Assembly: GCA_021734665.1 (NCBI GenBank)
Contig: JAIPIN010000003.1
Location: 1 to 47,658, forward strand
Direction: 5' to 3'
Origin: Kiritimatiellales bacterium
GTDB lineage: Bacteria; Patescibacteriota; Gracilibacteria; Peribacterales; Peribacteraceae
Length of the DNA: 47,658 bases
Shown: one piece after another, positions 1,225 to 46,415 of the stretch
How the letters are laid out: each line of letters opens with the position of its first letter
Numbering within the stretch: the stretch's first letter is position 1
Notes under the pieces: generated by a model
Seen by the model: only the letters and a program-made list of their open reading frames with translations
Database searches by the model: none
What the model was told of the DNA's origin: nothing
Translations under genes and position numbers: made by a program

Positions 1225-1293
1225 AAGTGCCAAGTACCAAGTGCCAAGTACCAAACCGACTTTTTGGAACTTGGAACTTTCTACTTGGAACTT
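1225..1293. repeat. Inverted pair of 7-mer arrays (AAGT[G/A]CC)x4 / (TTGGAAC)x4
   Basis: Read directly from the sequence. The right arm overlaps the stop codon at 1292-1294. Confidence 0.9.
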
Positions 1294-2425
1294 AGATTGC
1301 TAGAGATTTCAGAAAATCTGCATATGCCTTGATAAGCCTCTCTCTATCAAAATCATCAAGAATCTTGGTGGCTTCTTTGGCCATGCTCTTCTGCAAAGCA
1401 CTATCACTTAATAGATATCTAATTTTCTCGGCAAGATCTTTCTCGGAACCATCTGTAATCAATCCATTCACACCATCTTTAATTATCTCGGGCACTACTC
1501 CAACAGGAGTGGCTATTACTGGCATTCCAATACCCATTGCTTCTAATACACTTCGTGGGCCGCCCTCGCTCTTAGAACACATGACAAAAATATTAGAACT
1601 CGCCACAGCACCAAGTACTGCTTCTAATGTAGGCAGCCAACCAAGGAATGTCACTCGATCTTGCAAGTCTAATGATTGCGCCAGATCCTCGTACTTTGTA
1701 CGCATAGGACCATCCCCGACTACTACAAGCCGTGCACCATTAAGCATGGCAACCGCTCTAATAAGTTCAGGCAATCCTTTATTTGGAACAAGCCGACCAC
1801 AAAATGCTACATCATAAATAATAGGAGGATGCTTAATGGATTGCAGAATAGTTTTATCTAGATAAAAAGATGGAACAACCTGAATTTTTTGATCAGGAAC
1901 TCCCCATTTAATTAATCTATCTCGTACTTTATTATTCACAACACGAACTTTGTTCGCAAACTTTGCATCACGAGGCAAATATAATCGAGACATTATCCTT
2001 CCAATCAATTCTGTTAACGAAGAAGCTTTTGGCATACCAACTATATGATGAATTTCTAATGCGTAAGGAATTCGAATTTTTGCAGCAAGCCGTGATGCCC
2101 CCATACCATTATAGAAAGGAGGATATTCATGAACAGTTGCTATATCATGACCAAAAGTAGAAACCAACTCACGACCTTTTCGCATTATCCAACGTGATTG
2201 AAAACATATATTCCAAGGACATGGATGGAAAAATACAGAACCACCAACAAGTGCAGACTCTCCACCCTTTGTTTCTGATTTTCCATTCTTGGAAACTTTG
2301 GGTACTCGCGGACATATAATATCTATGCGATCAAAGTGCTTCCTAAGCTCTTGCAATGTGTACCAAAACGCTCCTTGCTTACGCTGTAGAATTGAACGGT
2401 CGCCAGAGATCATTAGTAATTTCAT
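1292..2425 (-). CDS. Glycosyltransferase family 4
   Basis: FCGRLVPNKG, GDGP and EGGPRSVLEAM (E-x7-E). Start at ATG 2425 (MKLLMISGD). Confidence 0.9.
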   Translation of the reverse strand: MKLLMISGDRSILQRKQGAFWYTLQELRKHFDRIDIICPRVPKVSKNGKSETKGGESALVGGSVFFHPCPWNICFQSRWIMRKGRELVSTFGHDIATVHEYPPFYNGMGASRLAAKIRIPYALEIHHIVGMPKASSLTELIGRIMSRLYLPRDAKFANKVRVVNNKVRDRLIKWGVPDQKIQVVPSFYLDKTILQSIKHPPIIYDVAFCGRLVPNKGLPELIRAVAMLNGARLVVVGDGPMRTKYEDLAQSLDLQDRVTFLGWLPTLEAVLGAVASSNIFVMCSKSEGGPRSVLEAMGIGMPVIATPVGVVPEIIKDGVNGLITDGSEKDLAEKIRYLLSDSALQKSMAKEATKILDDFDRERLIKAYADFLKSLAI

Positions 2426-2523
2426 AGATGCGTAAGAAGAAAAAGATTTCACTTCTTGCCCCTCGAAGCTACGAGCAAAGCGAGGAGCGAAGTGGGGTCG
2501 CCAGAGATCATTAGTAACTTCAT
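2398..2523 (-). repeat. 28-bp duplication of the GT gene 5' end flanking a CTTCGCT...AGCTTCG palindromic element
   Basis: ggtcgccagagatcattagtaaYttcat at 2398-2425 and 2496-2523 (1 mismatch). Hairpin element at ~2454-2498. Confidence 0.9.
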
Positions 2524-2544
2524 GATTAAAAGAACAATAACAAA

Positions 2545-2628
2545 TGGCTTGGGTTTGGGCTAGGGTTTGGGCTAGGGTTTGGGCTTGGGCTAGATCATAT
2601 TCTACTCCAAGCCCTAGTCCTAGCCCTA
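2545..2628. repeat. Inverted pair of hexamer arrays GGG(C/T)T(A/T) / (T/A)AGCCC
   Basis: About eight G-rich units at 2545-2593 and complementary units at 2608-2628, ending in the stop codon of the next gene. Confidence 0.9.
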
Positions 2629-3705
2629 AATCAGCTGTTCAAACAATGCACCATGCTCACCAGCTACCACATCCCATCCTCTCTTCTCCAAAGACTCAGA
2701 TGCCTTTTTAGAATATTCAACATAGTGCGAACGCACATTCTCAATTGCTGACACAATATCCTCTTCTCTTCTAAGATTTTTTAGAATCATTCCTTCTGAA
2801 AGATCTGTACTCAAACCTGTTTCGCTAGATAGTAAAACTGGCAGCCCGGTCGCCCTCGCTTCTAGCGCAACATTAGGACTAATTTCTGTAATAGATGGAA
2901 TCACCATCAAGTCGTGGCTCTGGAAAATCTTCTGTTTTTCTTCTCCGCTTGTTGGTGAAACAAAAACAACCTTCGGACTTGCAAGCTTCTTCAACTTAAT
3001 ATTCTTAGGACCATCTCCGACCATTGTTACACGAGCATCTATTTGATCAATCGCCTTTAAGAATGTCTCTAAATTTTTAAACGCTACGAAACGCCCCATA
3101 AATAGAATACGAAGTGGAGCATTCATGCTGTGCATCTCTGGTTGTCCTTCGGGCAATGCATTTTCTACAACTGAATGAGCAGGCAACTGCTTAAATTTAT
3201 TTTCATAAATCTCTTCTTGAAACTTAGTTGAAAAAACAATGTGATGGAACGAACTCAATATCCAACGATAAACCAAAAACCAGCAACTAGAAACTAGTGA
3301 ACTTTTCGCGTACCACTCCCTCAGCCCTCGCCTCCCTCCCCAGTCCGTATAACGTTCCCATCCAAAGTCTCCTCCAAGCCGCAAAACTTTCTTAGGCTTC
3401 TTTAGACGTGCAAATTCAAGAGGTGCCCCAACGCTTACTGATGAAAATACATATACAACGTCCGCATCTTTCCCAACTTTCTTAAGAGCCTTGGCATATC
3501 TGAACCATCGCAATATTGGAAAACTCTTATTCACTCTCACAACTTCCCATTTGGAACTTGGAACTTGGACCTTGGAACTTTCACCATAGGTGATAACAAC
3601 CACCTCCATCCCCATCTTCGTAAACTCCTCCGCCAAATGCCTGACGTAAGTAGCCGGCCCACCAATATCTGGAGGATAGATGCCAGTGGCAAGAACAATT
3701 TTCAT
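2626..3705 (-). CDS. Glycosyltransferase family 4 with two repeat-derived inserts
   Basis: MKIVLATGIYPPDIGGPA, FMGRFVAFKN, EISPNVALEA. Start at ATG 3705. Confidence 0.9.
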   Translation of the reverse strand: MKIVLATGIYPPDIGGPATYVRHLAEEFTKMGMEVVVITYGESSKVQVPSSKWEVVRVNKSFPILRWFRYAKALKKVGKDADVVYVFSSVSVGAPLEFARLKKPKKVLRLGGDFGWERYTDWGGRRGLREWYAKSSLVSSCWFLVYRWILSSFHHIVFSTKFQEEIYENKFKQLPAHSVVENALPEGQPEMHSMNAPLRILFMGRFVAFKNLETFLKAIDQIDARVTMVGDGPKNIKLKKLASPKVVFVSPTSGEEKQKIFQSHDLMVIPSITEISPNVALEARATGLPVLLSSETGLSTDLSEGMILKNLRREEDIVSAIENVRSHYVEYSKKASESLEKRGWDVVAGEHGALFEQLI

Positions 3706-3709
3706 AAGT

Positions 3710-4654
3710 TTATGATGTGTATTTCCCCTGATACCACTCCACCGTCTTCTTAATTCCATCTTCAAAACTTACCTTGGGTTCCCACCCGAGTGCTTTTATA
3801 GAACTTGAATCTAGAGCGTAACGCCAATCGTGCCCGAGACGGTCTTTTACAAATGAAATTAAATCCTGAGACTTGCCGAGTACTTCCAACATCAACTTCG
3901 CTGTTTCTATATTTTCTCGTTCGCTATCCGCACTAATCAAATAGATCTCTCCGTCTTTACCTTTTTCCAAAACTGCTTCCACAGCATCTGTGTGATCCGT
4001 TACATATAACCAATCACGTTTCTGTTTTCCTTCTCCATAAACTGGAATCTTCTCATCATTTAATGCTGTTCTGATTATTGTTGGTAAGAACTTCTCTTCT
4101 GCCTGATGTGGACCATAGTTATTTGTACAACGAGTGATACGTGCGCGGATTCCATATGTATTAATCGCTGCTTTAATAAGCAAATCGCCCGCAGCCTTGG
4201 AGGCTGAATATGGATTGCCCGGGTTAAGCGGAGATTGAGGAGTGCTGGATTGCTCGCCATCTTGTAATCCTCCATAAACTTCGTCAGTAGAAACATGTAG
4301 GAGCAAAACTTCTGGATGTGCTTTGCAAACTTCTATCAAACTCTGCACCCCAATAACATTGGTATGCAAAAACGGAGCAGCATCAGATATAGAATTATCC
4401 ACATGTGTTTCTGCTGCAAAATCTACAATCACATCTATACCACGATCTTCAACAATCTTTGTGACAAGTATCTGATCAGCAATATCTCCATGAATAAACT
4501 GCATCTGTTCTTCTACCGATTCTAGATATGACCTATCTCCAGCATATGTAAGTAGATCCAGCACAATAACCTGATCATCAGGATTGTTCTGCACATGTCG
4601 CAGTACAAAGTGCGATCCAATAAAGCCGGCGCCACCTGTGACAAGTAGATTCAT
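3710..4654 (-). CDS. rfbB: dTDP-glucose 4,6-dehydratase
   Basis: GGAGFIG, AAETHVD, VSTDEVYG, YSASK, CTNNYGP, DRLGHDWRY. Alternative start at 4660. Confidence 0.93.
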   Translation of the reverse strand: MNLLVTGGAGFIGSHFVLRHVQNNPDDQVIVLDLLTYAGDRSYLESVEEQMQFIHGDIADQILVTKIVEDRGIDVIVDFAAETHVDNSISDAAPFLHTNVIGVQSLIEVCKAHPEVLLLHVSTDEVYGGLQDGEQSSTPQSPLNPGNPYSASKAAGDLLIKAAINTYGIRARITRCTNNYGPHQAEEKFLPTIIRTALNDEKIPVYGEGKQKRDWLYVTDHTDAVEAVLEKGKDGEIYLISADSERENIETAKLMLEVLGKSQDLISFVKDRLGHDWRYALDSSSIKALGWEPKVSFEDGIKKTVEWYQGKYTS

Positions 4655-4704: not shown

Positions 4705-4772
4705 AGCTTGTAGCTAGTAGCTTGTAGCTTTAGGCTAGATTCCGTTCCTACAAGCTACCAGCTACCAACTAG
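4705..4772. repeat. Inverted pair of 7-mer arrays (TAGCTTG)n / (CAAGCTA)n
   Basis: Lies between divergent rfbB and rfbA. Same family as 44012-44065. Confidence 0.85.
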
Positions 4773-5487: not shown

Positions 5488-6536
5488 ACAGCGCTATATT
5501 TAGTAGCAATCTGCGCCCAATCATAATTAGCAGCATTTCCTTTGCCTGCTTCGGAAAGTTTTCTTCTTAAATCCTCATCAACAAGCAATTTGGCTAGGGC
5601 CATAGATGCTGCATCTGCATCGTCTGGATCAACTAGAATACCCGTCTCTCCATCTGTAACAATATCTGGAATACCCTCGATATTTGTGCCAACTACTGCA
5701 CAACCTGCAGCCTGAGCTTCTAGGAATACGTTACCGAGCGCTTCGTGGCGAGATAGCCCACAAAAAATCTCTGCCTGTGCGAATTCTTTGTATACATCTG
5801 GAGAAGAAATATATCCAAGGAACCTTACACGGTCTTTAATGCCCAAAAATTCTGCTTGTCGCTCTAATTTGTTTCGTAACGGACCATCACCAACTATGTG
5901 CAAATTGAACTCTTCTTTTTTTAGAATCTTGATAGCTTCCAATAGTGTATCAATCCCCTTCATTGCTCTAAGTCTTCCAACAAAAAGAATTCTCCCTGGA
6001 ACTTTTGAGTACCAACTATTCATATCCGCAATTTCTTTCAAACTTATTCCGTTTGGAATGAGAATTGCATCTTCTCGTTTGAATTTTTTAGCACGTTCTA
6101 TAAGCGGTGAGCTGATACATGTAATTTTATGTGCGGCCTTATGCATTTTATCAAGATGCAATTTTGTATTAGTACTCTGGCATGTAAGCATTCGCTTTGC
6201 TCGTGGAACTATGAAAATGCAATGTACCATTGCAAGCCCAGCAAATGATTCAAGAACAGCATGAATAAGACCCGGCTTTAATTTGCGCGCTGCAAGCGGT
6301 GCCAAAAAAGGAAACAGCCACTTATCAAATCCAAGCCCAAGCCCAAGCCCTACTCGTACAATAGGAATTTTCCCCTGCAACAAATCATGCTTTGGCAATG
6401 ACTTCTTCCCCCTCACTGTGATAATCGTAAAGTCATACCGGTCAGCAAGATGCAACGGTACCTCTTCTGCACATGCCTCTGCACCACTTCGGAAAGGGGT
6501 TAGAAATGCCGATAATATGACGATCTTTGGCTTCAT
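5457..6536 (-). CDS. Glycosyltransferase family 4
   Basis: IPNGI, FVGRLRAMKG, EALGNVFLEA. Its 3' end overlaps convergent rfbA by 31 nt. Confidence 0.9.
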   Translation of the reverse strand: MKPKIVILSAFLTPFRSGAEACAEEVPLHLADRYDFTIITVRGKKSLPKHDLLQGKIPIVRVGLGLGLGFDKWLFPFLAPLAARKLKPGLIHAVLESFAGLAMVHCIFIVPRAKRMLTCQSTNTKLHLDKMHKAAHKITCISSPLIERAKKFKREDAILIPNGISLKEIADMNSWYSKVPGRILFVGRLRAMKGIDTLLEAIKILKKEEFNLHIVGDGPLRNKLERQAEFLGIKDRVRFLGYISSPDVYKEFAQAEIFCGLSRHEALGNVFLEAQAAGCAVVGTNIEGIPDIVTDGETGILVDPDDADAASMALAKLLVDEDLRRKLSEAGKGNAANYDWAQIATKYSAVYDSLLSRTN

Positions 6537-7699
6537 TAAGCTAGAAAGCTATTAAAGAGTTTCTTATACTTCTCCCCCACCTTTGCCCAATCAAACTCAT
6601 CTTCAATTCTTTTACGGGCAGCCTCCCCCAATGCCTTGCGCTTAACATCATCTTCTATTAGACGACGCAAATGTGCCTTAAGTGCTTCGCGATCTCCCGG
6701 TTGGAATAAGAAACCAGACACACCGTTATGTATAAGGTAACGATTGCCACCAACTTCAGTTGCAATACATGCACACCCCGATGCCATCGCCTCCATGAGT
6801 GCATTGCTTAACCCTTCGGAGTAACTTGGAAGCACAAATATATCTGACTCGCCTAGAACTTGTGGAATGTCGTCACGCAAACCTGTAAACCTAACTACTT
6901 GGGCGAACTTTTGAACAAGAGGATGGCCTTCTTTATACCAACCAACTACTTGAATATTTAAATTAGGAAAATCTTTTTTAAGTGATGCTGCTGCAGATAC
7001 AAAGTCATCTACACCTTTTACGGATTCCAACCGCCCAACATATGTAATAGTTAAGGATTCGTTCCGCGTAACGCGTTCCGCGTAACGCGTAACGTCTATA
7101 CCTGTAGGAATAACCTCAACTTTCTTAGATATCCCCAATCTCCTCAAAATCGAATCTGGCTGTGGATGAAAAGTGACCACCTTCTTTGCGCAGAGAAGAA
7201 CCAGCCATCCAAGAGTCCATGCATATATTGCTGCACAAACCTTTGGCACTAAACTACGTGGCCACCACGTAATACCCACAAATGCATCTGTAAGAACAAT
7301 TACTTTGCGTCCAGTTAGCCTGAGAAAAATCACAGAAAGTGAAGTCCAAAAGAGAAGCTTATTTGCAATAATCAGATCCGGCTTCTCTTGCTTGATCAAC
7401 TTACGAACATATCCGGTAAATCCAAACGCAATTCCATAATTCCATGGATCTGGAATAAAAATATCTCTCATCCTATGTATCTCTAATGTTTCTGATACTT
7501 TATCAACTGAAACTTTCGACCTTTTGACCTTACGACCTTCTGACCTTTCGACCTTTTGACCTTTCGACTTATCTCCCCCCATACATACAACAAACACCCG
7601 ATATCCCAATCGCTGCCAAAGCTCAGCAAGCTTAACCGAGCTCACCATCCAACGATGGTCTTCTTTCCAGTAAGGGCTAATTAAGAGAATGGACTTCAT
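6536..7699 (-). CDS. Glycosyltransferase family 4 with two repeat-derived inserts
   Basis: YVGRLESVKG and PSYSEGLSNALMEAM. Confidence 0.9.
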   Translation of the reverse strand: MKSILLISPYWKEDHRWMVSSVKLAELWQRLGYRVFVVCMGGDKSKGQKVERSEGRKVKRSKVSVDKVSETLEIHRMRDIFIPDPWNYGIAFGFTGYVRKLIKQEKPDLIIANKLLFWTSLSVIFLRLTGRKVIVLTDAFVGITWWPRSLVPKVCAAIYAWTLGWLVLLCAKKVVTFHPQPDSILRRLGISKKVEVIPTGIDVTRYAERVTRNESLTITYVGRLESVKGVDDFVSAAASLKKDFPNLNIQVVGWYKEGHPLVQKFAQVVRFTGLRDDIPQVLGESDIFVLPSYSEGLSNALMEAMASGCACIATEVGGNRYLIHNGVSGFLFQPGDREALKAHLRRLIEDDVKRKALGEAARKRIEDEFDWAKVGEKYKKLFNSFLA

Positions 7700-7703: not shown

Positions 7704-7786
7704 AATGGAAAATGTAAAATTAAGAATTGAGAATTGAGAATTTAGAATTAATTGTCCATTATCAATTGTCAATTATCAATTATTCT
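7704..7786. repeat. 7-mer arrays (GAATTGA-like) and (ATT[G/A]TCA)
   Basis: Fills the whole intergenic gap and includes the stop codon at 7776. Confidence 0.75.
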
Positions 7787-8135: not shown

Positions 8136-8231
8136 ATATTTGAATTGTACATTATTCTGTAAGATTCTAATAGAACCGAATGGCAATTAGATTGCCAGTC
8201 ATTAGCTAATTAGATAGCTGCTAATTGCTAA

Positions 8232-8900
8232 TTATCGAATGAACGACCTCAGTAATATCTTTAAAGCAGTCTTCACCCCATTCGCAAATGACTGCCCCTT
8301 AGCAAGGGTATATTCAGAATAAATGACCTTTGTAGGAACTTGTGCCGTGCGCCACTTATGTTGTGCAGACTCACGAACTATCTCTGTGCAAAATTCAAAT
8401 CCACTCATTTTTAGATCAATCTGCTTTAGTGCTTTTGGTCCAAATACTTTGAATCCACATTGGCTATCTGCAACCCACTTACCTGTAACACCAAACGTAA
8501 TTATATTTCCTATCCCGTTAAACAGTCTGCGAATGAATGGAATACGATTTCGCTGCCCGAAGCGATTAGCAAAAACAATATCTGCTTCATCTTTTTCTAT
8601 AGGCGCAAGTAACGCAGGAATATCGTCAGGACTGTGCTGCTCATCCGCATCAAGAGTTACCAATACATCTGCACCAAATCGGCGTGCCGCCTCTATGCCT
8701 GTCATGGTTGCAGCCCCTGCACCACAATTTTCTACATGATGAACAACAATCGCTCCTGCCTTGGTTGCAGCATCTGCTGTTTTATCTGTAGAACCATCAT
8801 CAACAACAATTACACTATCAACAAACTTAAGCACATCTCTAACCACTTGAGCTACACGCCCTTCTTCGTTATATGCCGGAATAACTGCAATTGTTCTCAT
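8232..8900 (-). CDS. Glycosyltransferase family 2 (DPM synthase-like)
   Basis: IPAYNEE, VDDGSTD, DADEQH, DSQCGFK. Confidence 0.9.
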   Translation of the reverse strand: MRTIAVIPAYNEEGRVAQVVRDVLKFVDSVIVVDDGSTDKTADAATKAGAIVVHHVENCGAGAATMTGIEAARRFGADVLVTLDADEQHSPDDIPALLAPIEKDEADIVFANRFGQRNRIPFIRRLFNGIGNIITFGVTGKWVADSQCGFKVFGPKALKQIDLKMSGFEFCTEIVRESAQHKWRTAQVPTKVIYSEYTLAKGQSFANGVKTALKILLRSFIR

Positions 8901-8943
8901 AAACTCAATTATAGATGATTATCACACAGAGGCTATCGCAGAT

Positions 8944-9020
8944 TTGTTATTTAGTTAATTCGTTACTTCGTTTTTTTATATGTGTCATTTAAATGAAATA
9001 ACTAGGTAACGAAATAACGT
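8944..9020. repeat. Inverted pair of 8-mer arrays (TTCGTTAN / NTAACGAA)
   Basis: Degenerate arms at 8944-8972 and ~8993-9020. Same family as 15471-15556. Confidence 0.7.
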
Positions 9021-12026: not shown

Positions 12027-13238
12027 GTGTCATTCAACCATTCTGATATTCGGCTTCAATTCCCCATCTTAAAGAAGGGCACATATCTTGATAGCGCCGC
12101 AACTGCACAAAAGCCCCAAGTAGTAATTGACTCAATGAAACATTTTTACGAAACAGAAAACGCAAATGTCCACCGAGGAATGCATATGCTTTCGGAAAAA
12201 GCTACAACCGCCTTCGAAGAAGCGCGCACTTCTGTACAAAAATTTATTAATGCTAAATCAGCAGAAGAAATTATATTCACTTCTGGTAGTACTGAGGGCA
12301 TCAACCTAGTTGCAAAAACATGGGGGAAAGAAAATTTAGGAGAAGAAGATTCAGTTTTGATAACTCTGCTGGAACATCATTCAAACATTACACCTTGGAT
12401 ACAGCTAAAAGATGAAAATGACTGCGCAGTAGAATGGGTGGAACTTGATCAAAATGAAAATATTGATATAACTCAGCTAGACAAACATCTGGCGAATGGA
12501 AATGTAAAACTAGTTGCGATCACTGGGCAGAGCAATGTAACTGGTGTGCGAACTCCTCTTAAAGAGATAATAAATAAGACACACGAAGCAGGTGCATTGG
12601 CACTCGTAGATGCAGCACAACTTTCTGCACATCATCCAATTGATGTACAAGATTTAGAATGTGACTTTTTGGTTTTGTCTGGACATAAACTTTATGGTCC
12701 TACAGGAATAGGAGTTTTGTATGGCAAACGTGAACTGCTCGAAAGTATGCCCCCCTTCTTAACTGGCGGAGGAATGATAAAAGAAGTTAAACGTGATCAC
12801 TTCACATGTGCAGCCATTCCAACAAAATTTGAAGCAGGCACTCCACCAATCGCACAAGCAGTGGGGCTGCGGACTGCCATAGATTGGCTTTTGCAATTTA
12901 ATTGGGAAGATATAGAAGCACATGAGCGCTCACTTATAGAAAAATCATTTTCTGAACTCAGAAAAATTGAAGGGCTTACAATCCTAGGACCAAGTGATCC
13001 AAAAAATATTTCTGGATGCTTAAGTTTTGTAATTGATGGCATTCATCCGCATGACCTTACAGATATTATTGGGCAGAAAGGCGTGTTCATGCGTGCAGGC
13101 CATCACTGCGCTCAACCTTTGCATGAGCATTACGGAATCCCAGCATCCACCCGCCTCTCGATTGGAATTTATAATAATGGAGAGGACATAGAAAAAATAA
13201 CTCCCGCCATCCAAGAGGCAATAAAGATATTTTCCTAG
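12027..13238 (+). CDS. sufS: Cysteine desulfurase, SufS type
   Basis: YLDSAATAQKP, EHHSN, DAAQ, SGHK (PLP Lys), RAGHHCAQP. Start chosen at GTG 12027 (the track gives 11988). Confidence 0.93.
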   Translation: MSFNHSDIRLQFPILKKGTYLDSAATAQKPQVVIDSMKHFYETENANVHRGMHMLSEKATTAFEEARTSVQKFINAKSAEEIIFTSGSTEGINLVAKTWGKENLGEEDSVLITLLEHHSNITPWIQLKDENDCAVEWVELDQNENIDITQLDKHLANGNVKLVAITGQSNVTGVRTPLKEIINKTHEAGALALVDAAQLSAHHPIDVQDLECDFLVLSGHKLYGPTGIGVLYGKRELLESMPPFLTGGGMIKEVKRDHFTCAAIPTKFEAGTPPIAQAVGLRTAIDWLLQFNWEDIEAHERSLIEKSFSELRKIEGLTILGPSDPKNISGCLSFVIDGIHPHDLTDIIGQKGVFMRAGHHCAQPLHEHYGIPASTRLSIGIYNNGEDIEKITPAIQEAIKIFS

Positions 13239-13275
13239 CCCCAGCCCCAGCCCTAGCCCCAGCCCAAGCCCCACC
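13236..13275. repeat. Hexamer array (NAGCCC)x6 forming the entire sufS-sufU spacer
   Basis: tagccc cagccc cagccc tagccc cagccc aagccc cacc ATG. Confidence 0.95.
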
Positions 13276-13698
13276 ATGGACCTCTACGCAGAAAACATCC
13301 TTGACCACTTCAAAAGCCCTCGTAATAGAGGAGAGATCAAAGACCCAACTGTAGAGCATGAAGAATTGAACCTGAGTTGTGGAGATAAAATCACAATTCA
13401 ATTGGCCATAGAGAATGATGTGATTAAAGAAAGCCAGTGGAAAGGAAGCGGATGCGCGATCAGCATTGGAGCAATGTCTATATTATCCGAAGAACTGGAA
13501 GGGAAATCTGTAGAAGAAGCCTCAGCTTTATCTATAGATGATGTTAAGAAGTTACTTGGAGTACCAATCAGCCAAAGAAGACTGAAGTGTGCGATGCTGT
13601 GTTTACATACATTGAAGAATGCGCTGCATTCATTTAAGCATGAAGATACTCAAAGTTGGACAGAGACTATTGGACAAGAAGAAATGAAAAATGAATAA
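13276..13698 (+). CDS. sufU: Fe-S cluster scaffold / sulfur transfer protein (SufU/IscU family)
   Basis: LYAENILDHFKSPRNRG, NLSCGD, GCAIS, RLKCA. Confidence 0.9.
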   Translation: MDLYAENILDHFKSPRNRGEIKDPTVEHEELNLSCGDKITIQLAIENDVIKESQWKGSGCAISIGAMSILSEELEGKSVEEASALSIDDVKKLLGVPISQRRLKCAMLCLHTLKNALHSFKHEDTQSWTETIGQEEMKNE

Positions 13699-13754
13699 TG
13701 AAAAATGAATAATTAGTTCAAGGTAGCATTTTTCATTCTTAATTATTAATTTTC
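13681..13754. repeat. Inverted pair of 7-mer arrays (AATGAA[A/T]) / ([T/A]TTCATT)
   Basis: Encodes the last SufU codons and the stop. Same family at 20760-20856, 37841-37931 and 39408-39459. Confidence 0.8.
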
Positions 13755-15235: not shown

Positions 15236-15472
15236 ATGGCTAAAAATCCTCAGCAAAGGCGAAGCGATCCAAGACGCAAAAAATGCCCATTCTGCGAAGG
15301 TGGCGCTAAATATATTGATTATAAAGACTATCCAACTATAAAACCTTATACCGATTACTTTGGTTCTGTTCGCCAGCGTTACTACACTGGAATTTGCCTA
15401 AAGCATCAGAAAATGCTGAGAACTGCAATCCAGAGGGCACGATTCATGGGGATGCTCGCCTACAGGAAATAA
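15236..15472 (+). CDS. rpsR: 30S ribosomal protein S18 (zinc-binding form)
   Basis: RRKKCPFC, IDYKD, TGICLKHQ, AIQRARFMGML. Confidence 0.95.
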   Translation: MAKNPQQRRSDPRRKKCPFCEGGAKYIDYKDYPTIKPYTDYFGSVRQRYYTGICLKHQKMLRTAIQRARFMGMLAYRK

Positions 15473-15556
15473 CGTTATTTTGTTACTACACTATTTCGTT
15501 TGCAGAATAGAACTTTTTGCAAAAAAAATGAATTAACGAATTAACGAAATAACGAA
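15471..15556. repeat. Inverted pair of 8-mer arrays (TTCGTTAN / TAACGAA[T/A])
   Basis: Starts at the rpsR stop codon. Right arm is aattaacgaattaacgaaataacgaa. Confidence 0.75.
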
Positions 15557-15610
15557 TCTGCGATAAACTTTGCTATAGTAACAACTTACATCTTATTAAC
15601 TACTTCTATC

Positions 15611-20759: not shown

Positions 20760-20856
20760 AAAAGTGAATAGTGAAAAATGAATAGTGAAAAATGTGAAAA
20801 TTTTGAAGAATCGATAAATTTGCATCCATTTTTAACTATTAACTTTTCACTTATTC
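20760..20856. repeat. Inverted pair of 7-mer arrays (AGTGAA[T/A]) / ([T/A]TTCACT)
   Basis: aaagtgaatagtgaaaaatgaatagtgaaaaatg ... catttttaactattaacttttcactt. Confidence 0.8.
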
Positions 20857-21527: not shown

Positions 21528-21624
21528 ACCTAGAAAGTTTATTAGGTTCAAATTAATTCAGATTTGTTTTATATGTAAATGAGAAACCTAATAAACGTAA
21601 TATACTTAACCAACCTAATAAGCC
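21526..21624. repeat. Inverted 9-mer arrays (TTTATTAGG / AACCTAATA family)
   Basis: Same family as 34098-34198 and 35335-35465. Confidence 0.7.
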
Positions 21625-21679
21625 TTTTTCCTAAAGTATAATCTTATAATTCACTCCAACTTATACTATAATAATCACC

Positions 21680-22649: not shown

Positions 22650-22761
22650 CAGAAAGAGACAAAAGAGTAAAAAGATATAAAAGATAAAAAGGATCAAAAA
22701 TTGTGCAGCATCATATCCTTTTTCTCCTTTTCCTCTTTTATCTCCTTTTGCCCTTTTTTCC
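22650..22761. repeat. Inverted pair of ~9-mer purine/pyrimidine arrays (AAAAGAGNN / NNCTCCTTT)
   Basis: Purine arm 22650-22700 and pyrimidine arm 22715-22761, starting right after the stop codon. Confidence 0.75.
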
Positions 22762-22796
22762 TGATACACTCGCACTGATTTTTCTCCTTCTCCCCC

Positions 22797-23407: not shown

Positions 23408-24691
23408 TCACCCCCCCAACCAACTCGGTCGTTCATCTGGCGCATCCACAATTCCAATCTGGATATATTCTGGGCGCGCCTCGTAAACTGAGTAAACTGG
23501 TTCCACTATTTCTTCTTCCTCATCTTTTTTTACCACACGAAACCAAGCTGCTTTTAATCCTCTTACACGACCACCCGCTTTACGAGTAGTTCCTGCTGGG
23601 ATTTCGGTTGTGTACTCTGTGCGATCTGGCGGAGGGCTTCTGTGATCCCAAGTAAAAGGCCCAATAATTTCTGAAGCTCTATTATCTTTTGTACCATAAT
23701 AGATATAGTAAGCCTTGTTTCCATCTGTGTAAGTTTGAATTAGCAACGCACCAGGACTATCGTTAATGAACTTCATATCATAGTGCGGAGGATAGATTGT
23801 TGCATCTGTTCCTTGCGGACTATAGTAACTAACTGCAAAACTATGATTGCGTCTTTTGCTTATCGGGAAGCCATATTCCCACACTCCCCTGTACGCAGTT
23901 GTACTGACCTGACAAAGTCCCCCACCATATTCCGGTAATGTCTTATCTCCTAGAATTACAAGCTCGGGCTTGTATCCTGTAGATCTGTTAACAGGGCCGA
24001 GTATCTCGTTAAAAGAAAATTCAGCACCTTGTTCCACTAAAGCACCGTTGAATTTGTTTAATCCAACATTAATATTATGCTTTCTGGCCAATGGCGAACC
24101 GCTGTAATCAGATTCACCTACTGTTACCACTTCCTTAATTCCAATTTTTTTGAGAGATGAATCAATAGTCATTTCTGGTTGAATTTCGTCTACCGGAAGA
24201 ACTATGTCAGATACATTTTGACCTAGTGCAGCAATTGTAACCTCTACTGCTTCATCTAATCTTACTCTGCGCCCTGTTAATCCAACTCCTTCAAATACAA
24301 TGCCACCTGTTGAACTCTTTTTGATAACCACAGAGCCAGGTTCACGATCAATTACTGATGAAACTTTGTCTTGTAACGTTCTTCGGATTACATCTTTGTC
24401 CCATCCTGGGACAGAATGACGAACTACACCCTCTGGCAATGCTGGAATTGTATCGCCATCCACAAGAAATTCAGCCAATGGCTTAATAGGATCGCCGCGA
24501 TAAGTCCATTCCTCTGTACTAGAGTACCAATCTGCATATTCATAAGGTTCTAGGAATATTAGATAATGATTGTGTCGAAAAGTGAGAGTAGGTGAAGCAG
24601 CTGATGCTACAACTGGCATGAGCAAAGTTACAAGTGCCAAGTACCAAGTGCCAATTTGGAACTTGATTTTTGGAACTTGGAACTTATTCAT
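23408..24691 (-). CDS. VanW-family exported protein
   Basis: FSFNEILG, YGGGLCQVSTT.YR, RRNHS, DAT, D.KF.N. Start at ATG 24691, overlapping the rnhA stop. Confidence 0.88.
   Translation of the reverse strand: MNKFQVPKIKFQIGTWYLALVTLLMPVVASAASPTLTFRHNHYLIFLEPYEYADWYSSTEEWTYRGDPIKPLAEFLVDGDTIPALPEGVVRHSVPGWDKDVIRRTLQDKVSSVIDREPGSVVIKKSSTGGIVFEGVGLTGRRVRLDEAVEVTIAALGQNVSDIVLPVDEIQPEMTIDSSLKKIGIKEVVTVGESDYSGSPLARKHNINVGLNKFNGALVEQGAEFSFNEILGPVNRSTGYKPELVILGDKTLPEYGGGLCQVSTTAYRGVWEYGFPISKRRNHSFAVSYYSPQGTDATIYPPHYDMKFINDSPGALLIQTYTDGNKAYYIYYGTKDNRASEIIGPFTWDHRSPPPDRTEYTTEIPAGTTRKAGGRVRGLKAAWFRVVKKDEEEEIVEPVYSVYEARPEYIQIGIVDAPDERPSWLGG
24625..24686. repeat. Inverted pair of 7-mer arrays (CAAGT[G/A]C / TTGGAAC) within the VanW signal-peptide codons
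   Basis: Same family as 1225-1293. Confidence 0.9.
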
Positions 24692-25244: not shown

Positions 25245-25350
25245 AGCTACATTCTAACATTATTTTGCCCATTCTACCCTATACACAAGCTTGCTAATTA
25301 TCCTAAGTTCTATGTTCTAAGTTCTATTTACTAAGCTATACTACGCAGGT

Positions 25351-26607
25351 ATGTCAAAAATCTTCAGAACAGGAACCTTGTTTTTGCTCCCACTTATCAC
25401 TCTTTTCTTGGGGTGGCAGATTGGTGCAAGTTACGAACAGAAAAATTTAGTAGAACTCTCTGAGCAGCTTGAGCTTTTGTATACAGGCAAAACAGCAAGT
25501 GGAACTATTTTGGGTGAGCCAGAACAGGAGGTAGATCTATCGTTACTTTGGGGTGTTTGGAGATTACTTCTTAAACACTACATAGTTGAAGATCAACTCA
25601 ATCCACCCGAGATGGTTTACGGTGCAGTTGGAGGGTTGGTTCGTGCCATTGGTGATCCATACACAACATTTATGACACCAACAGAAAACCAGCAATTCAC
25701 ACAATCGCTACAAGGAAAACTAGAAGGTATAGGAGCAGAACTAACAATGCGCGATGGAATGGTGGTGGTGGTTGCTCCACTTAAAGGCTCCCCTGCTTCT
25801 AAAGCAGGATTAGAACCAGAAGATATTATTACAAAAGTAGACGGTGAAGATATCCAAGGAGAAACTCTGCACCAGGTAGTACAGCGCATCCGAGGTCCCA
25901 AGGGATCTAATGTGACATTATCCATAATACGCGAAGAAGAACCCGATCTTATGGAAATTGATATAACTCGAGCTAGTATCACCGTACCTAGTGTTGAATA
26001 TGAAATTAAAGAAACTGCAACTGGCTCCGTTGGCTACATTCAGCTAAATCAATTTGGTGAAGACAGCGTGAAGGAAGTTAAAAATGCACTTAAGGATCTA
26101 CGCAATGAAGATCTACAGGGCTTGATTATGGATGTTCGCTTTAACGGTGGTGGATATCTGGAAGGTGCTGTAGATATGGCATCTATGTTCCTAAAGGAAG
26201 GAAAAGTTGTAACAGTTGAACGTAGAAACGGAGAGCCATCAAACCATTACGTTTCTGGTCGCCCATCTGATCCTGATATTCCATTGGTCGTTTTGATTAA
26301 CGAAGGCTCTGCAAGCGCATCAGAAATTTTGGCAGGTGCATTGCAAGATGCAAATCGTGCAACCATTATCGGGAAAAAGAGTTTTGGTAAAGGAACAGTT
26401 CAAGAAGTCTTTGACCTGCCAGGTAATGCATCAGTTCGAATTACAGTAGCAAGATGGCTTACTCCTTCAGGAAGAGACTTGGGGAAAGATGGAGTGCATC
26501 CTGATATAGAAGTTGAACGTACACGTGAAGATGTGGCTAACCAAGAAGACCCACAGCTAGATGCTGCGCTAGAGTTACTTCTGGATGGGTCAGAATCAGC
26601 AAATTAG
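25351..26607 (+). CDS. ctpA: Carboxy-terminal processing protease (S41A) with PDZ domain
   Basis: DPYT, GIG, D.R.NGGG, SASASEI, FGKGTVQ. Confidence 0.93.
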   Translation: MSKIFRTGTLFLLPLITLFLGWQIGASYEQKNLVELSEQLELLYTGKTASGTILGEPEQEVDLSLLWGVWRLLLKHYIVEDQLNPPEMVYGAVGGLVRAIGDPYTTFMTPTENQQFTQSLQGKLEGIGAELTMRDGMVVVVAPLKGSPASKAGLEPEDIITKVDGEDIQGETLHQVVQRIRGPKGSNVTLSIIREEEPDLMEIDITRASITVPSVEYEIKETATGSVGYIQLNQFGEDSVKEVKNALKDLRNEDLQGLIMDVRFNGGGYLEGAVDMASMFLKEGKVVTVERRNGEPSNHYVSGRPSDPDIPLVVLINEGSASASEILAGALQDANRATIIGKKSFGKGTVQEVFDLPGNASVRITVARWLTPSGRDLGKDGVHPDIEVERTREDVANQEDPQLDAALELLLDGSESAN

Positions 26608-26710
26608 CAGTTAGCATGTTATCTAATGGCTAATATTGCTAATTGCTTTTACTATTAATACTCGAAAAGTTCATCTGAACTCATTTACCACGCATCTTTT
26701 TATAATCCCC

Positions 26711-34097: not shown

Positions 34098-34198
34098 TAG
34101 GTTCATTATGTTAATTGGGTTTATTAAGTTTATTAGGTCATAATTGAGATATACAATGTCATCTAACCTAATAAACACTATCAACGTAAGAAACCTAT
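34098..34198. repeat. Inverted pair of 9-mer arrays (TTTATTAGG / AACCTAATA)
   Basis: Five degenerate units on the left and about four on the right. Confidence 0.8.
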
Positions 34199-34388: not shown

Positions 34389-34446
34389 TAAGCCATCAAG
34401 TCAAAACCACTAGAAGCTAGCAGCTATAAGCTATAAGATATTTTAC

Positions 34447-35334: not shown

Positions 35335-35465
35335 GATAGGTTTATTAAGTTTATTGGGCTTATTAGGTTTATTAGGTTCTTATTATCATTCCATTAAGAA
35401 CCCAATAAACATAATCAACTTAATAAACCCAATAAACCGGTATAATTCAATGAATTCAATCAACC
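35335..35465. repeat. Inverted pair of 9-mer arrays (GGTTTATTA / AACCCAATA)
   Basis: Five units at 35335-35388 and about seven at 35398-35465, ending at the pheT stop codon. Confidence 0.9.
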
Positions 35466-37840: not shown

Positions 37841-37931
37841 GAATAGAAATGAAGAATGAAAAATGAATAATGAAGAATTACATCAAAATCATCACTTTAT
37901 TTTCCATTTTTCATTATTCACTATTCATTTT
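37841..37931. repeat. Inverted pair of 7-mer arrays (AATGAAN / NTTCATT)
   Basis: aaatgaagaatgaaaaatgaataatgaagaatt ... catttttcattattcactattcatttt. Confidence 0.85.
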
Positions 37932-39407: not shown

Positions 39408-39459
39408 ATTATTCTAATCACTATTCACTATTCACTATTCACTTTTAACTTTTCACTTT
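39408..39459. repeat. Single-arm 7-mer array (CACT[A/T]TT)n
   Basis: cactattcactattcactattcacttttaacttttcacttt. Confidence 0.85.
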
Positions 39460-41525: not shown

Positions 41526-41576
41526 GGTTGATGTACCGCTTCAGCAAGACAAAAAGTCGATGATTATATGCCCTCC

Positions 41577-42907: not shown

Positions 42908-42997
42908 CATCCTTCGATACACCCCGCCGTGTCATACTGAATAGCTCTGGCTTGCCGGAGCGTATCGAAGTACGACCGGCGGGGCACTCAGGATGAC
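42908..42997. repeat. Nested REP-like palindrome (GTCAT-NN-TGA...TCGAA-NN family)
   Basis: Outer copy at 42908-42929 plus 42977-42997. Inner copy in opposite orientation at 42931-42976. Confidence 0.85.
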
Positions 42998-43013
42998 ATG
43001 TTGATTATTAGTC

Positions 43014-44011: not shown

Positions 44012-44065
44012 AGCTTGTAGCTTGTAGCTAGTAGAATCATGTCTACAAGCTACTAGCTACAAGCT
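44012..44065. repeat. Inverted pair of 7-mer arrays (TAGCTTG / CAAGCTA)
   Basis: 23-nt arms with 2 mismatches, between divergent genes. Confidence 0.9.
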
Positions 44066-44113
44066 CATGTTTTTTCATGCAAATAATGCAAGATCCGCTA
44101 GAATCCTTACACT

Positions 44114-45421
44114 ATGAAAATCGCAGTTATCGGTACCGGCTACGTAGGCCTTGTCTCAGCCGCCTGCTTTGCAGAGTTGGGGCATGAAGTATTTGGAATA
44201 GATATTGATGAGAAAAAAATCGCCAAAATTAAGAAAGGAGAAAGCCCAATATATGAACCTGGGCTAGAAGAGCTTTTGCGTGCAGGACTTAAGAATGGAC
44301 GACTTTCGTTTACAACTGATTTGAATGAAGTACTACCAGAATGCCAGATTGTTTTCTCTGCTGTTGCCACTCCTCCAGGCGAAGGATACAAAGCAGACCT
44401 TAGAGCAGTTTTCACCGTTGCAGAAACTGTGGCAAAGAATGCAGATCGCGATTTGGTATTTGTAAATAAGTCTACAGTGCCAGTTGGCACCGGCAAGCAG
44501 TGCGAAGAGCGTATTGCAAAAATTCTACAAGAGCGTGAAGTAAATTATGCAATTCCAGTTGTTTCTAATCCTGAATTTTTAAGAGAAGGAATGGCAGTAA
44601 ACGACACCCTCATGCCAGACCGTGTTGTGATTGGAATTAACCACAATGAATGGGCAGCTGAATTGATGGAAGAGCTATATCGTCCAATTACAAGAGTAGG
44701 CAAACCGCTCGTATTTATGAGCAGAGAAAGCTCAGAGATTGTTAAGTACGCATCAAACTCATTACTGGCAACCAAGATCAGCTTTATAAACATGCTTTCT
44801 GAACTCACAGAGAAAACAGGAGCCAACATTCGTGATGTTGCAAAAGGAGTAGGGCTGGATGATCGTATTGGACCACGCTTTTTACATGCAGGAATTGGAT
44901 ATGGCGGAAGCTGTTTCCCAAAAGATGTAAAAGCACTTCTGGCTACTGCCAAAGAACTTGATATACCTATGGAAATTGTAGAAGCAACAGATCAGATTAA
45001 TGCCCGACAGCGAAAGCGCTTCTTCAAAAAGATCATAGATGCTCTTCCTCCCAAAGCTACGATTGGAGTGTGGGGACTTAGCTTTAAACCTAAGACAGAT
45101 GACATGCGAGAAGCGCCTAGCCTAGATCTGTTACCTGATCTTGTAAAAGCAGGGCACACTGTTCGTGCGTTTGATCCAGCAGCAATAGAAACTGCTACAC
45201 CATTACTTCCAAAAGAAATTGAATTCACAAAAAATCCATTCGAAGCAGCCAAGGAAGCTGACGTTGTAATAGTTCTTACAGAATGGGATGAATTCCGCGG
45301 AGTAGATCTGAACAAGCTAAAAGAAATTATGAAGGGCAACGACATCTTTGACGGAAGAAATATTTATGAACCAGAAGAAATGCGAGAAGCAGGACTTCAA
45401 TACCATGGAATAGGATTATGA
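44114..45421 (+). CDS. ugd: UDP-glucose 6-dehydrogenase
   Basis: IGTGYVG, KSTVPVG, SNPEFLREG, KY.SN, GYGGSCFPKD, FKPKTDD.RE, DGRN. Confidence 0.95.
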   Translation: MKIAVIGTGYVGLVSAACFAELGHEVFGIDIDEKKIAKIKKGESPIYEPGLEELLRAGLKNGRLSFTTDLNEVLPECQIVFSAVATPPGEGYKADLRAVFTVAETVAKNADRDLVFVNKSTVPVGTGKQCEERIAKILQEREVNYAIPVVSNPEFLREGMAVNDTLMPDRVVIGINHNEWAAELMEELYRPITRVGKPLVFMSRESSEIVKYASNSLLATKISFINMLSELTEKTGANIRDVAKGVGLDDRIGPRFLHAGIGYGGSCFPKDVKALLATAKELDIPMEIVEATDQINARQRKRFFKKIIDALPPKATIGVWGLSFKPKTDDMREAPSLDLLPDLVKAGHTVRAFDPAAIETATPLLPKEIEFTKNPFEAAKEADVVIVLTEWDEFRGVDLNKLKEIMKGNDIFDGRNIYEPEEMREAGLQYHGIGL

Positions 45422-46365
45422 AAATTCTCTTAACAGGAGCGGCTGGTTTTATAGGTTTTCATACAGCCAAAACATTACTCGCACGCGGTGATGAAGTAAT
45501 CGGCCTTGATAACTTTAATCCTTATTATGATCCTCAACTTAAAGAAAATCGCATTAAACAACTAGAAGGACTAAAAGGATTCACATTAATACGTGGAGAT
45601 ATAACAGACCGCGAAACTATTAGGGGCGCAATGAAAGGAGTAGATCGCATATGCCACTTGGCAGCACTTGCTGGAGTGAGGTATTCGTTTGAGCATCCTG
45701 ATGAATTTATTTTGAATAATATTCAAGGAACGTTTGAGATGATTGATGAAGCACGTATGCAAGAAATCCCTGGCTTCATATATGCATCATCCAGTTCTGT
45801 GTATGGAGGCAACGAGCAGTCTCCTTCTTCCGAAGAAGATCGCGTAGACGATCAGCTCGCGCTTTATGGTATGACAAAGAAGGACAATGAACTAATGGCT
45901 CACACATTCCATAATCTCTATGGATTACCAGTAACAGGACTGCGATTCTTCACGGTATATGGTCCTTGGGGCAGACCTGATATGGCATTGTTTCTATTTA
46001 CAGATGCAATTTTGCATGACCGACCAATCCAAGTATTTGGAGAAGGAAAACAACAGCGCGACTTCACCTATGTAGATGATATTGTCTCAGGAATTGTCGC
46101 TTCTATAGACAAAAATCATGATGAAGAAATAATCAACTTAGGATGCGGAAGAAAAGAAGAGCTTATGGACTTCATCAAAATTATTGAAGAGTCTTGTGGC
46201 AAAGAAGCACAAAAAGAAATGCTACCAATGCAACCAGGAGACGTGCGATCAAGCCTTGCAGATATTTCTAAGGCGCAAAAACTTTTAGACTATGAACCCA
46301 AGACTCAGATTAAAGATGGCATACCGCAGTTTGTTGAGTGGTATCGGGAGTACTATGGAATTTAG
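45418..46365 (+). CDS. NAD-dependent epimerase, UDP-glucuronate 4-epimerase type
   Basis: GAAGFIG, LAA.AGVRYS, ASSSSVYG, Y..TK, LRFFTVYGPWGRPDMA. ATGA overlap with ugd. Confidence 0.9.
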   Translation: MKILLTGAAGFIGFHTAKTLLARGDEVIGLDNFNPYYDPQLKENRIKQLEGLKGFTLIRGDITDRETIRGAMKGVDRICHLAALAGVRYSFEHPDEFILNNIQGTFEMIDEARMQEIPGFIYASSSSVYGGNEQSPSSEEDRVDDQLALYGMTKKDNELMAHTFHNLYGLPVTGLRFFTVYGPWGRPDMALFLFTDAILHDRPIQVFGEGKQQRDFTYVDDIVSGIVASIDKNHDEEIINLGCGRKEELMDFIKIIEESCGKEAQKEMLPMQPGDVRSSLADISKAQKLLDYEPKTQIKDGIPQFVEWYREYYGI

Positions 46366-46415
46366 AATTAAGAATGCAGAATTAAGAATTAAGAATGCAG
46401 AATTGAGAATTGAAT
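46361..46415. repeat. Single-arm 7-mer array (AGAATTA/AGAATGC/AGAATTG)x7
   Basis: Begins inside the epimerase stop codon. Confidence 0.9.

Follow-up and report, generated by a model that had tools for sequence, protein, structure and literature searches.

The window analysed here is contig JAIPIN010000003.1, a stretch of 47,658 nt (contig C58 of the source genome, here G000) from a patescibacterial genome of 1.05 Mb, which is assembled in 62 contigs, 83% complete and about 41% in G+C content (assembly GCA_021734665.1). It encodes glycosyltransferases, a sugar epimerase, a cysteine desulfurase and NifU-like pair, the ribosomal proteins S6 and S18, YebC, a class A penicillin-binding protein, RecO and RNase H. 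Two tRNAs were the only Rfam matches; the window thus contains no rRNA gene, and its many short tandem arrays lie between or inside protein genes. The repeat units of these arrays have near-fixed letters and are called words in the following. Elsewhere in the genome, arrays of this kind border a small gene of the four-helix-bundle family (FHB; PF05635/TIGR02436), and the arrays of the window are probably gene-less versions of the cassette formed by this gene and its arrays. The nearest public records of the cysteine desulfurase belong to metagenome-assembled genomes (MAGs) named 'Patescibacteria group bacterium' (83% and 75% identity). Open reading frames (ORFs) were called with a crude caller of our own, which over-extends 5′ ends. 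For comparison we used 41 genomes of the class (G000 to G040), among which G001 to G007 are congeners. The window is collinear with a 140-kb stretch of G001, the protein identity being 70–97%.

Number, pairing and vocabulary of the arrays

Arrays were detected with Tandem Repeats Finder (TRF), and five dinucleotide shuffles of the whole genome served as null. In the window, 66 TRF rows were merged into 48 arrays, in agreement with a preliminary description of this DNA that had counted more than 20 from the sequence alone. The whole genome contained 976 arrays compared to 163–191 in the shuffles; among rows with a period of 6–9 nt the numbers were 784 and 69–85, respectively. The commonest period was 7 (385 rows), followed by 9 (195), 8 (118) and 6 (86). 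Arrays cover about 9% of the non-ORF DNA and 2.2% of the genome and are present in 260 of the 538 gene gaps of at least 40 nt. Moreover, 92 of the 306 intergenic arrays abut a stop codon (array start at −10 to +5), whereas random intergenic placement yielded 23.4 ± 4.8. Both density and stop position therefore exceed the null.

Inverted pairing was confirmed as a general property. Among 133 adjacent pairs of the same period, 111 had reverse-complementary units (at most two mismatches) and only one had direct units (at most one mismatch). At least two reverse-complement copies of the unit were found within 90 nt of 204 out of 409 arrays, while two control units gave 61 and 68. For intergenic arrays an inverted partner within 90 nt was present in 175 of 306 cases (control units about 16%), so that the word 'mostly' in the preliminary description amounts to little over half. 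The complementarity of the two arms (23.8 matches) does not exceed the level reached when the units of one arm are permuted (24.0; 89 pairs), demonstrating that the arms vary independently, as had been described. The same comparison gave no sign of copying templated by the hairpin or of compensatory changes between the arms, and both were rejected.

The vocabulary of the arrays is restricted and recurs at distant loci: all 246 heptamer arrays are drawn from merely 63 canonical units. Many words follow a '6+1' pattern with six conserved positions and one that is nearly free, as in the families TTGG[N]AC, AGCT[N]GT, AATGAA[N], AGAATT[N], AATT[N]TC and GGGCT[N]. The AGCT[N]GT word alone occurs at 27 loci in G000. 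Flanks and loops compared within one word family had nothing in common.

Among the relatives, the words TTGG[N]AC and AGCT[N]GT are distributed in an all-or-none manner that does not follow kinship. Three consecutive TTGG[N]AC units were matched 21 times in G000, 58 times in G001 and 39 times in G018, which belongs to another genus, with no match in G002 to G007. The corresponding AGCT[N]GT pattern had 53 matches in G000, 12 and 6 in two further congeners, none in G003 to G007 and 20 in G028 from another family. A control with reversed patterns gave no match at all. The AATT[N]TC word was found throughout the family. Furthermore, 53 of 84 arrays in G001 use a unit of G000 (control 7.8%). As an impression from 25 examples, no obvious Shine-Dalgarno motif precedes the predicted starts that follow arrays in G000.

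A four-helix-bundle cassette bordered by word arrays

Among the ORFs lying between arrays of the same word in G000, five were mutually homologous. They encode 119–147 amino acids and are located exactly between inverted arrays, which are 382–400 nt apart. All five belong to PF05635, '23S rRNA-intervening sequence protein' (Pfam, E-values 1e-27 to 1e-40), and to TIGR02436, 'four helix bundle protein' (NCBIfam). The Avd models of diversity-generating retroelements (DGRs), bAvd and DivGenRetAVD, matched them below the cut-off. Same-word arrays also enclose GreA, RNase HII, a sigma factor and an unannotated, secreted-looking ORF of 166 amino acids; these were dismissed as housekeeping neighbours and do not form a second cassette family.

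A census with hidden Markov models revealed 11 FHB genes in G000. Nine of them have flanking arrays, each with its own word, and several of the loci lie at contig ends. The cassette has a length of about 445–467 nt, and its downstream arm abuts the stop codon of the FHB gene itself. In the element on contig C26, the arms pair across the FHB ORF in both the minimum free energy and the centroid fold. The preliminary description had named four-helix-bundle and GxxExxY genes as flanked by similar arrays; the former are indeed enriched between arms, while the GxxExxY family was not identified.

This architecture is conserved across phyla. In ten related genomes, 28 out of 39 FHB genes have arrays on both sides, ten on one side and one on neither, and in other phyla 18 to 20 of 20 copies are flanked, depending on the window used. 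Of the 59 FHB genes retrieved outside G000, 42 are enclosed by arrays, 14 have an array on a single side and three have none (56/59 flanked). The arms are clearly inverted at 32 of the 42 two-sided loci and direct at four. Apart from the relatives, this set covers Chloroflexota, Bacteroidota, Acidobacteriota, Gammaproteobacteria and Cyanobacteria, including Anaerolineales, Alcanivorax, Bacteroidales, Pyrinomonadaceae, three cyanobacteria and a Vibrio. Genomes carry 11–24 FHB copies, each with a different word. Conversely, PF05635 was present in four of five array-bearing genomes of other phyla and again in four of five, compared to one of 14 named control genomes. The FHB gene of Westiellopsis (L484) is bordered by ATCAGTT x5.3 (426–462) and ACTGATA x5.0 (853–887). 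The latter unit is obtained by rotating TAACTGA and the former by rotating its reverse complement. TAACTGA has been described in Beggiatoaceae, Cyanobacteria and Bacteroidetes as a repeat that crosses phyla without explanation (PMC4679880).

Gene-less arrays share words with gene-bearing ones. Out of 399 gene-less arrays, 120 are at most one mismatch away from the 15 words found beside FHB genes of G000 (control 50 ± 19), and 282 match when the flank words of the relatives' FHB genes are added (control 166 ± 18). Nearly all unit families that had been listed for the window border an FHB gene in at least one of the genomes sampled. Gene-less arrays of such words are about 40 times as numerous as FHB genes. 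PF05635 copy number and array density are correlated, with a Spearman coefficient of 0.78 over 40 genomes and of 0.74 over the 32 outside the genus, where density was derived from one locus of 7–20 kb per genome and kin genomes are not independent samples. Outside the genus, none of ten genomes without PF05635 was array-dense, in contrast to 18 of 22 with PF05635.

Filled and unfilled sites were compared using the FHB loci of two congeners. Thirteen of 18 map onto G000 with both sides; three to four of these are filled and nine are not. Six of the nine unfilled sites carry gene-less arrays, often of a different word than the FHB locus of the relative. In G001, an inverted AGCT[N]GT pair with arms 296 nt apart was observed (L431, G001:C37:27900-29000; arms at 373–402 and 698–721). 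An FHB gene was not detected between these arms, and the locus may be a cassette with a decayed ORF or with other cargo.

Arrays of the window and their orthologous sites

Many arrays of the window touch stop codons. The hairpin at 1225..1293 consists of AAGT[G/A]CC x4.3 (TTGG[C/T]AC on the minus strand), a loop of 9 nt and TTGGAAC x4.3. Its right arm overlaps the stop codon (1292–1294) of the glycosyltransferase gene 1292–2452(−), and the orthologous site in G001 has identical words. A second TTGG[N]AC hairpin (24631..24685; CAAGTGC x3.4 / TTGGAAC x2.3) ends at the stop codon at 24684 of the RNase H-like gene. At 2546..2628, a hairpin of a 6-mer word (GGGCT[N] x7.7 + AGCCCT x3.2) overlaps the stop at 2626. 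G001 carries a single 16-copy array of the GGGCT[N] word at this site, and the same word borders an FHB gene in G001 (L425). Another 6-mer array, AGCCC[N] x6.2 (13234..13273), fills the gap between the cysteine desulfurase-like and the NifU-like gene and starts in the stop at 13236. At the orthologous site, G001 has CCTAGC x14 and G002 a hairpin of 9-mers. The paired arrays at 7718..7783 (AATT[N]AG x4.9 + AATT[N]TC x4.9) overlap the stop at 7776, and AATT[N]TC borders an FHB gene on contig C22 of G000. AAATGAA x4.6 (13682..13713) overlaps the stop at 13696 and has an inverted partner within 90 nt, and GAATTA[N] x7.7 (46358..46411) starts in the stop at 46363.

Three further blocks at stop codons are degenerate. 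A TTAGC-type paired array (8185..8233) touches the stop at 8232 and was seen by eye, its TRF score being just 30; a pair to be compared with it, ATTAGCTG/CTAATCAG, borders an FHB gene in G001 (L423). The TAACGAA[N] hairpin at 15469..15557 has a degenerate left arm, which runs from the stop codon (15470–15472) of the S18-like ORF, and a right arm of GAATTAAC x3.5. The hairpin TTAGCA / TGCTAA (26603..26650) starts in the stop codon TAG at 26605–26607 and was recognized by eye below the TRF threshold. Together with a block near 20317 that had likewise been described, these arrays are visible by eye, yet degenerate and weak or undetected by TRF. All eleven stop codons to which the preliminary description had anchored arrays are true ORF ends, and ten are touched by an array. 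At the eleventh (35460), the hairpin at 35337..35438 (TAGGTTTAT x4.7 / AACCCAATA x4.4) ends 22 nt short of the stop, and the G001 sequence at this site is unrelated.

Apart from these, the window contains two hairpins of the AGCT[N]GT word. The first (4705..4771; AGCT[N]GT x3.7 / CTAC[N]AG x3.4) lies in a divergent intergenic region and is absent from the orthologous region of G001. At the second (44012..44065; AGCT[N]GT x3.3 / CTAC[N]AG x3.3, loop of 8 nt), G001 has other words. The octamer array ATTCGTTA x3.9 (TAACGAA[N]; 8942..8972) is replaced by a different word in G001. The hairpin at 20760..20852, composed of about seven AGTGAA[N]/AATGAA[N] units and TTTTAAC x3.3, is missing as an entire block from the orthologous region. 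Both words of the hairpin AATGAAG x4.4 / ATTTTTC x4.7 (37848..37931) are kept in G001, and so is the word of CTATTCA x6.3 (39414..39457), which fills a gap of 54 nt between two genes. Further arrays consist of 9-mers. The word of AAACCTAAT x4.7 (21584..21625) borders an FHB gene on contig C57 of G000, and 9-mers related to the purine/pyrimidine hairpin AAAGATAAA x5.3 / TCCTTTTTC x5.4 (22653..22762) border FHB genes on contig C36 and in G001 (L422). Another is GTTTATTAA x3.9 (34098..34138; AACCTAATA word on the other strand). A heptamer array, CTAAGTT x3.4, lies at 25303..25335. The unit families named in the preliminary description were found at or near the positions given there, except that the array at 34410..34437, described as TAGCTTG, is CTAGAAG x4, a word that is also present at the G001 site.

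Four arrays lie in frame within three glycosyltransferase genes, all on the minus strand. TTGGAAC x4.3 (3551..3580; gene 2626–3765) is read as SSKVQVPSSKW, and CCAAGC x3.3 (GGGCTT word; 6331..6350; gene 5457–6536) as GLGLGLG. The gene 6536–7699 contains both a heptamer array of CGCGTAA/CGTTCCG (7060..7094) and the octamer array CTTTCGAC x7 (7513..7568), which is read as KSKGQKVERSEGRKVKRSK. G001 uses different words at matching codon positions, namely AAGTTCC x4 at the position of 7060..7094 and ATCAACC x5 at that of 7513..7568. In the G001 orthologue of 3551..3580, the array of the TTGGAAC word (AAGTTCC) is interrupted by a GC-rich hairpin insert of 60 nt, which is in frame in the glycosyltransferase gene. 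Small dispersed repeats have been reported inside cyanobacterial heptamer arrays, and the insert is reminiscent of these. Long GC-rich palindromes located in gaps between genes form a second class of repeats, which was observed at 42880–43000 and also at loci of G001 and G004.

Comparison of 28 gene gaps between the window and G001 revealed arrays in both genomes in 15 gaps (about nine with the same word, six with different words), in the window alone in four, in G001 alone in eight and in neither in one. The presence/absence variation that the preliminary description had expected was thus found, accompanied by replacement of units. One site is empty in the window: at 45418..45421(+), two genes overlap by ATGA. 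Its counterparts in G001, G005 and G002 are repeat hairpins of 94–115 nt, made of a heptamer in the first two and of a different word in the third; G004 has a GC-rich palindrome instead. The term 'empty sites' of one small mobile element cannot be kept as worded, as sites at which a relative carries the FHB gene often hold, in G000, a gene-less hairpin of a different word.

Two observations on gene content concern the same stretch. An ORF of 1836 amino acids (26711–32221(−)) has no counterpart in the collinear stretch of G001 (tblastn, 1e-10), which represents a large gene-content difference between the congeners. The region 40487–41576 (1.09 kb) contains no ORF of at least 100 amino acids and no Rfam match; its G001 counterpart has a length of 1.7 kb. 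The 40–42 kb bin has a G+C content of 0.486, above that of its surroundings.

Origin of the gene-less arrays

Taken together, word sharing, architecture and the correlation with array density lead us to read the arrays of the window as non-autonomous or remnant stems. We favor the view that they probably are gene-less versions of a family of small selfish cassettes, which carry an FHB gene and resemble the intervening sequences (IVSs) of rRNA genes. A complete cassette of about 450 nt would consist of the gene and two arms able to pair across it as a long stem. The forms seen in the window would be hairpins of two arms around a loop, solitary arms, and arms that lie in frame within protein loops. 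Arrays may reach further intergenic positions, either as non-autonomous derivatives of cassettes or as their remnants, and slippage may then alter the copy number. Their transcripts might fold into stems cleavable by RNase III, as known for rRNA IVSs; an RNase III gene is present in G000. Contact with stop codons may arise because this is the sole side of a gap without required sequence in a compact genome. Alternatively, it could be a property of the cassette, in which the downstream arm abuts the gene's own stop.

Among known elements, rRNA IVSs come closest to the cassettes. As described in PMC4990558, rRNA IVSs are selfish elements of 428–444 nt with complementary borders, which sometimes contain an S23p ORF and are excised by RNase III. 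IVSs with S23p, for example in Leptospira, thus share with the cassettes the family PF05635, a similar length (428–444 nt versus about 445–467 nt), an ORF bordered by stem-forming complementary sequences and a sporadic, horizontally patchy distribution regarded as selfish. S23p-type ORFs have also been reported in rRNA insertions of the candidate phyla radiation (PMC11270868) and, with the family motif GxxRxxxSxxxNxxE, wedged among cas genes (PMC3936711). In contrast to IVSs, the cassettes described here reside in ordinary gene gaps, where the neighbors of the FHB genes listed for G000 are unannotated called ORFs, and not in rRNA helices. Furthermore, their stems consist of tandem 6–9-nt words with one word per copy, and gene-less stems number in the hundreds.

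Tandem heptamers of bacteria have been catalogued since 1990 as short tandemly repeated repetitive (STRR) sequences, long simple sequence repeats (LSSRs), TAACTGA repeats or 'global regulator sites', and we know of no agreed origin for them. STRR sequences were originally defined as confined to heterocystous cyanobacteria, of which heptamer arrays are a hallmark, whereas the host studied here belongs to the Patescibacteria, judging by its nearest records; a cyanobacterial origin was rejected for this reason. Families of tandem heptamers with paired hairpin arms are described from cyanobacteria (PMC2670836), Geobacter (PMC2700814), Xanthomonas and Nostoc (PMC4692102) and Beggiatoaceae (PMC4679880). 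The likeness to our arrays extends, in these descriptions, to the dominance of heptamers, few words per genome at many loci, a mostly intergenic location with some copies in genes, the ability to form hairpins, pairs on opposite strands and degenerate consensus letters (GTTGCTYN, MTYCTGA); the paired hepta- and octanucleotide families of Geobacter metallireducens are one such case (PMC2700814). Units of 5–11 nt, with 7 the commonest, and one unit at many loci were both found in G000. Unlike our arrays, the published repeats, as described in these four articles, are untied to any gene family. Our own literature search found no link of PF05635, S23p or FHB genes to heptamer or STRR arrays and no report of such arrays in Patescibacteria; it covered few subscription journals, and supplements lay outside it.

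Other mobile systems share single features with the cassettes. Repetitive extragenic palindromes (REPs) arranged as hairpins (REPINs) together with their REP-associated tyrosine transposases (RAYTs), as well as miniature inverted-repeat transposable elements (MITEs), are likewise short intergenic hairpin repeats that far outnumber a small associated gene, and REPINs reportedly behave within genomes like non-autonomous elements. In contrast to RAYTs, the gene found here encodes a four-helix bundle without known catalytic fold, and its arms are tandem arrays of variable length instead of a fixed palindrome of 20–40 nt beside a Y1 gene. MITEs are defined by terminal inverted repeats plus a target-site duplication. 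At 111 hairpins, the longest string common to both flanks averaged 3.32 nt (null 3.36), which gives no sign of such a duplication. Avd of DGRs, a small basic helical-bundle oligomer working with nucleic acid, is a distant homologue of FHB proteins as judged from sub-cut-off scores. In contrast to DGRs, no template/variable repeat pair was seen and RVT_1 had no match in G000 at 83% completeness; a reverse transcriptase as writer of the arrays was rejected accordingly.

Several observations weigh against a cassette origin. The search of the window for an FHB gene or a remnant of one was negative, as the preliminary description had noted for the gene, and the syntenic stretch of G001 contains one FHB gene and otherwise no copy or remnant. 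The link within the window is therefore made by word and architecture and not by adjacency. The 83%-complete assembly contains no FHB gene cognate to the commonest words of G000, AGCT[N]GT and TTGG[N]AC, although FHB genes bordered by these words do occur in G016 and in a genome of the Pyrinomonadaceae, where the word is TTGGAAC. The presence of arrays per gap in G000 and G001 is no better than chance (15 shared versus 15.6 expected). Where filled and empty sites are made of different words, as is often the case, loss of the ORF alone does not account for them. PF05635 was unmatched in at least two array-bearing genomes, a 1.6-Mb gammaproteobacterial MAG and a Pseudomonas fluorescens, cyanobacteria carry merely one to six copies, four of the 22 FHB-positive genomes outside the genus are array-sparse, and the densities of the relatives stem from single loci of related genomes. 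Neither a target-site duplication nor a movement enzyme was identified. For the active writing or transposition postulated in the preliminary description, no mechanism has emerged. Its observation is confirmed and its interpretation partly supported: none of the three outcomes it had named beforehand as speaking against it, namely a density and position as in the null, no gene family enriched between arms and invariant orthologous sites, was found.

According to another explanation, the arrays are ordinary slippage-born long simple sequence repeats (SSRs) with heptamers favored by the polymerase, and FHB is an unrelated mobile gene that lands or survives in hairpin loops. Heptanucleotides are the most abundant class of long SSRs in most prokaryotes, and slippage has been proposed as the cause (Mrazek 2007, as cited in PMC4679880). 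In fact, copy number differs between orthologous same-word arrays (7.7+3.2 versus 16.2 at 2546..2628; 6.2 versus 14.3 at 13234..13273), and double and triple super-periods of 12, 14, 18 and 21 nt occur in the TRF rows of the window. Arrays of TTGGAAC and AGCTTGT were found at 120 or more loci each across many phyla, and so was a shuffled control heptamer. The idea of a universal special word was rejected for this reason, and the cross-phylum scans demonstrate that heptamer arrays are a general bacterial feature but yield no enrichment figure, a point that also counts against the cassette reading, as do the two array-bearing genomes without PF05635. However, slippage leaves unexplained why one word occurs at tens of unlinked loci, why words are distributed all-or-none among congeners and why new sites of a sister species reuse the shared vocabulary. 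Moreover, the copy number of heptamer arrays peaks at 4.5–5 units and collapses above 5.5, which is not the decay expected from slippage alone, and none of the ten FHB-negative relatives is array-dense. Slippage as the sole origin thus appears unlikely to us.

Selection by the host for RNA elements, such as terminators, 3′-end protectors or intercistronic processing sites in a Rho-less lineage, might account for the position of the hairpins. In 123 tandem-gene contexts, they hug the stop codon with a median gap of 4 nt, compared to 29 nt between block and next start. A hairpin has, on average, a length of about 85 nt and a folding energy of −27 kcal/mol, and STRR hairpins between cyanobacterial hupS and hupL are proposed to stabilize transcripts (PMC2670836). 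The RNA-binding domain of Rho (Rho_RNA_bind, PF07497) was found in none of the 41 genomes searched and in nine of 14 control genomes, and canonical terminator-like sites are not enriched (22 versus 15.8 ± 4.2). However, the domain is missing from genomes with and without arrays, and Rho absence was rejected as their cause. A T-run follows only four of the 58 hairpins and none of the terminator-like sites listed lies at an array, so that intrinsic termination was rejected, too. Folding was better on the sense strand in 26 and on the antisense strand in 32 of the 58 cases; with no sense-strand advantage, nothing points to selection on RNA G:U pairs. Arrays also occupy divergent intergenic regions (1.64 per kb versus 2.2–2.5), 72 of 409 lie deep inside ORFs and are read through in frame, individual sites keep their arrays no more often than chance predicts, and the gene pair at 45418..45421 manages without any spacer. 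Selection for an RNA function is hence an improbable origin.

Mobilization of the hairpins as REP/REPIN-like elements by the RAYT-like Y1 (IS200-type) transposases of the genome is very improbable: three Y1_Tnp genes of about 150 codons are each bordered by inverted hairpins, Y1_Tnp copies correlate with array density and IS200-type transposons leave no target-site duplication, in line with our finding, but the adjoining repeats are GC-rich fixed hairpins of 17–32 nt in 2–10 copies and not arrays of 6–9-nt words, the correlation is weaker than that of FHB (0.51 versus 0.78) and several genomes with many Y1 genes are array-poor, as G035 with six copies and density 0. The three loci (G000:C25:26000-26640, C20:4830-5400 and C16:17740-18460), each with its own hairpin on both sides and one with a 5′ GTAG, are a classical REP/RAYT-like system, which coexists with the word arrays and is distinct from them.

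Returning to the FHB cassette, its protein might have a direct role in the arrays. To our knowledge, the PF05635 'IVS protein' is widespread and structurally solved, with no known function. S23p of Xanthomonas is described as a homopentameric toroid (PMC4990558), and the PDB entry 2gsc comprises five chains. As the number of words per arm, about five, agrees with the number of subunits, the protein may read the array, with the homopentamer contacting about five tandem words. It is a tentative and rather doubtful extension that PF05635 pentamers are sequence-specific readers of some five words, matched paralogue by paralogue, and that the cassette seeds and maintains the gene-less arrays.

In practical terms, arrays account for about 2% of a 1-Mb genome, are found in about half of the longer gaps between genes and insert in frame into enzymes. 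They also interrupt assemblies, several FHB loci being located at contig ends. In six phyla, nearly all FHB copies examined lie between inverted arrays of their own word, and the FHB-negative relatives sampled had no dense arrays. These two findings join two puzzles and make a hypothesis that can be tested at the bench, namely that a pentamer binds the array of five words that belongs to it. The cassettes thereby offer a testable origin for the tandem heptamer repeats of bacteria. If the extended reading, with the protein as reader of the words, is true, the orphan IVS protein family would gain a function, and the heptamer STRR/LSSR repeats of Cyanobacteria, Patescibacteria, Chloroflexota, Bacteroidota and Proteobacteria would all go back to a single, widespread class of protein-associated selfish elements that had not been recognized before.

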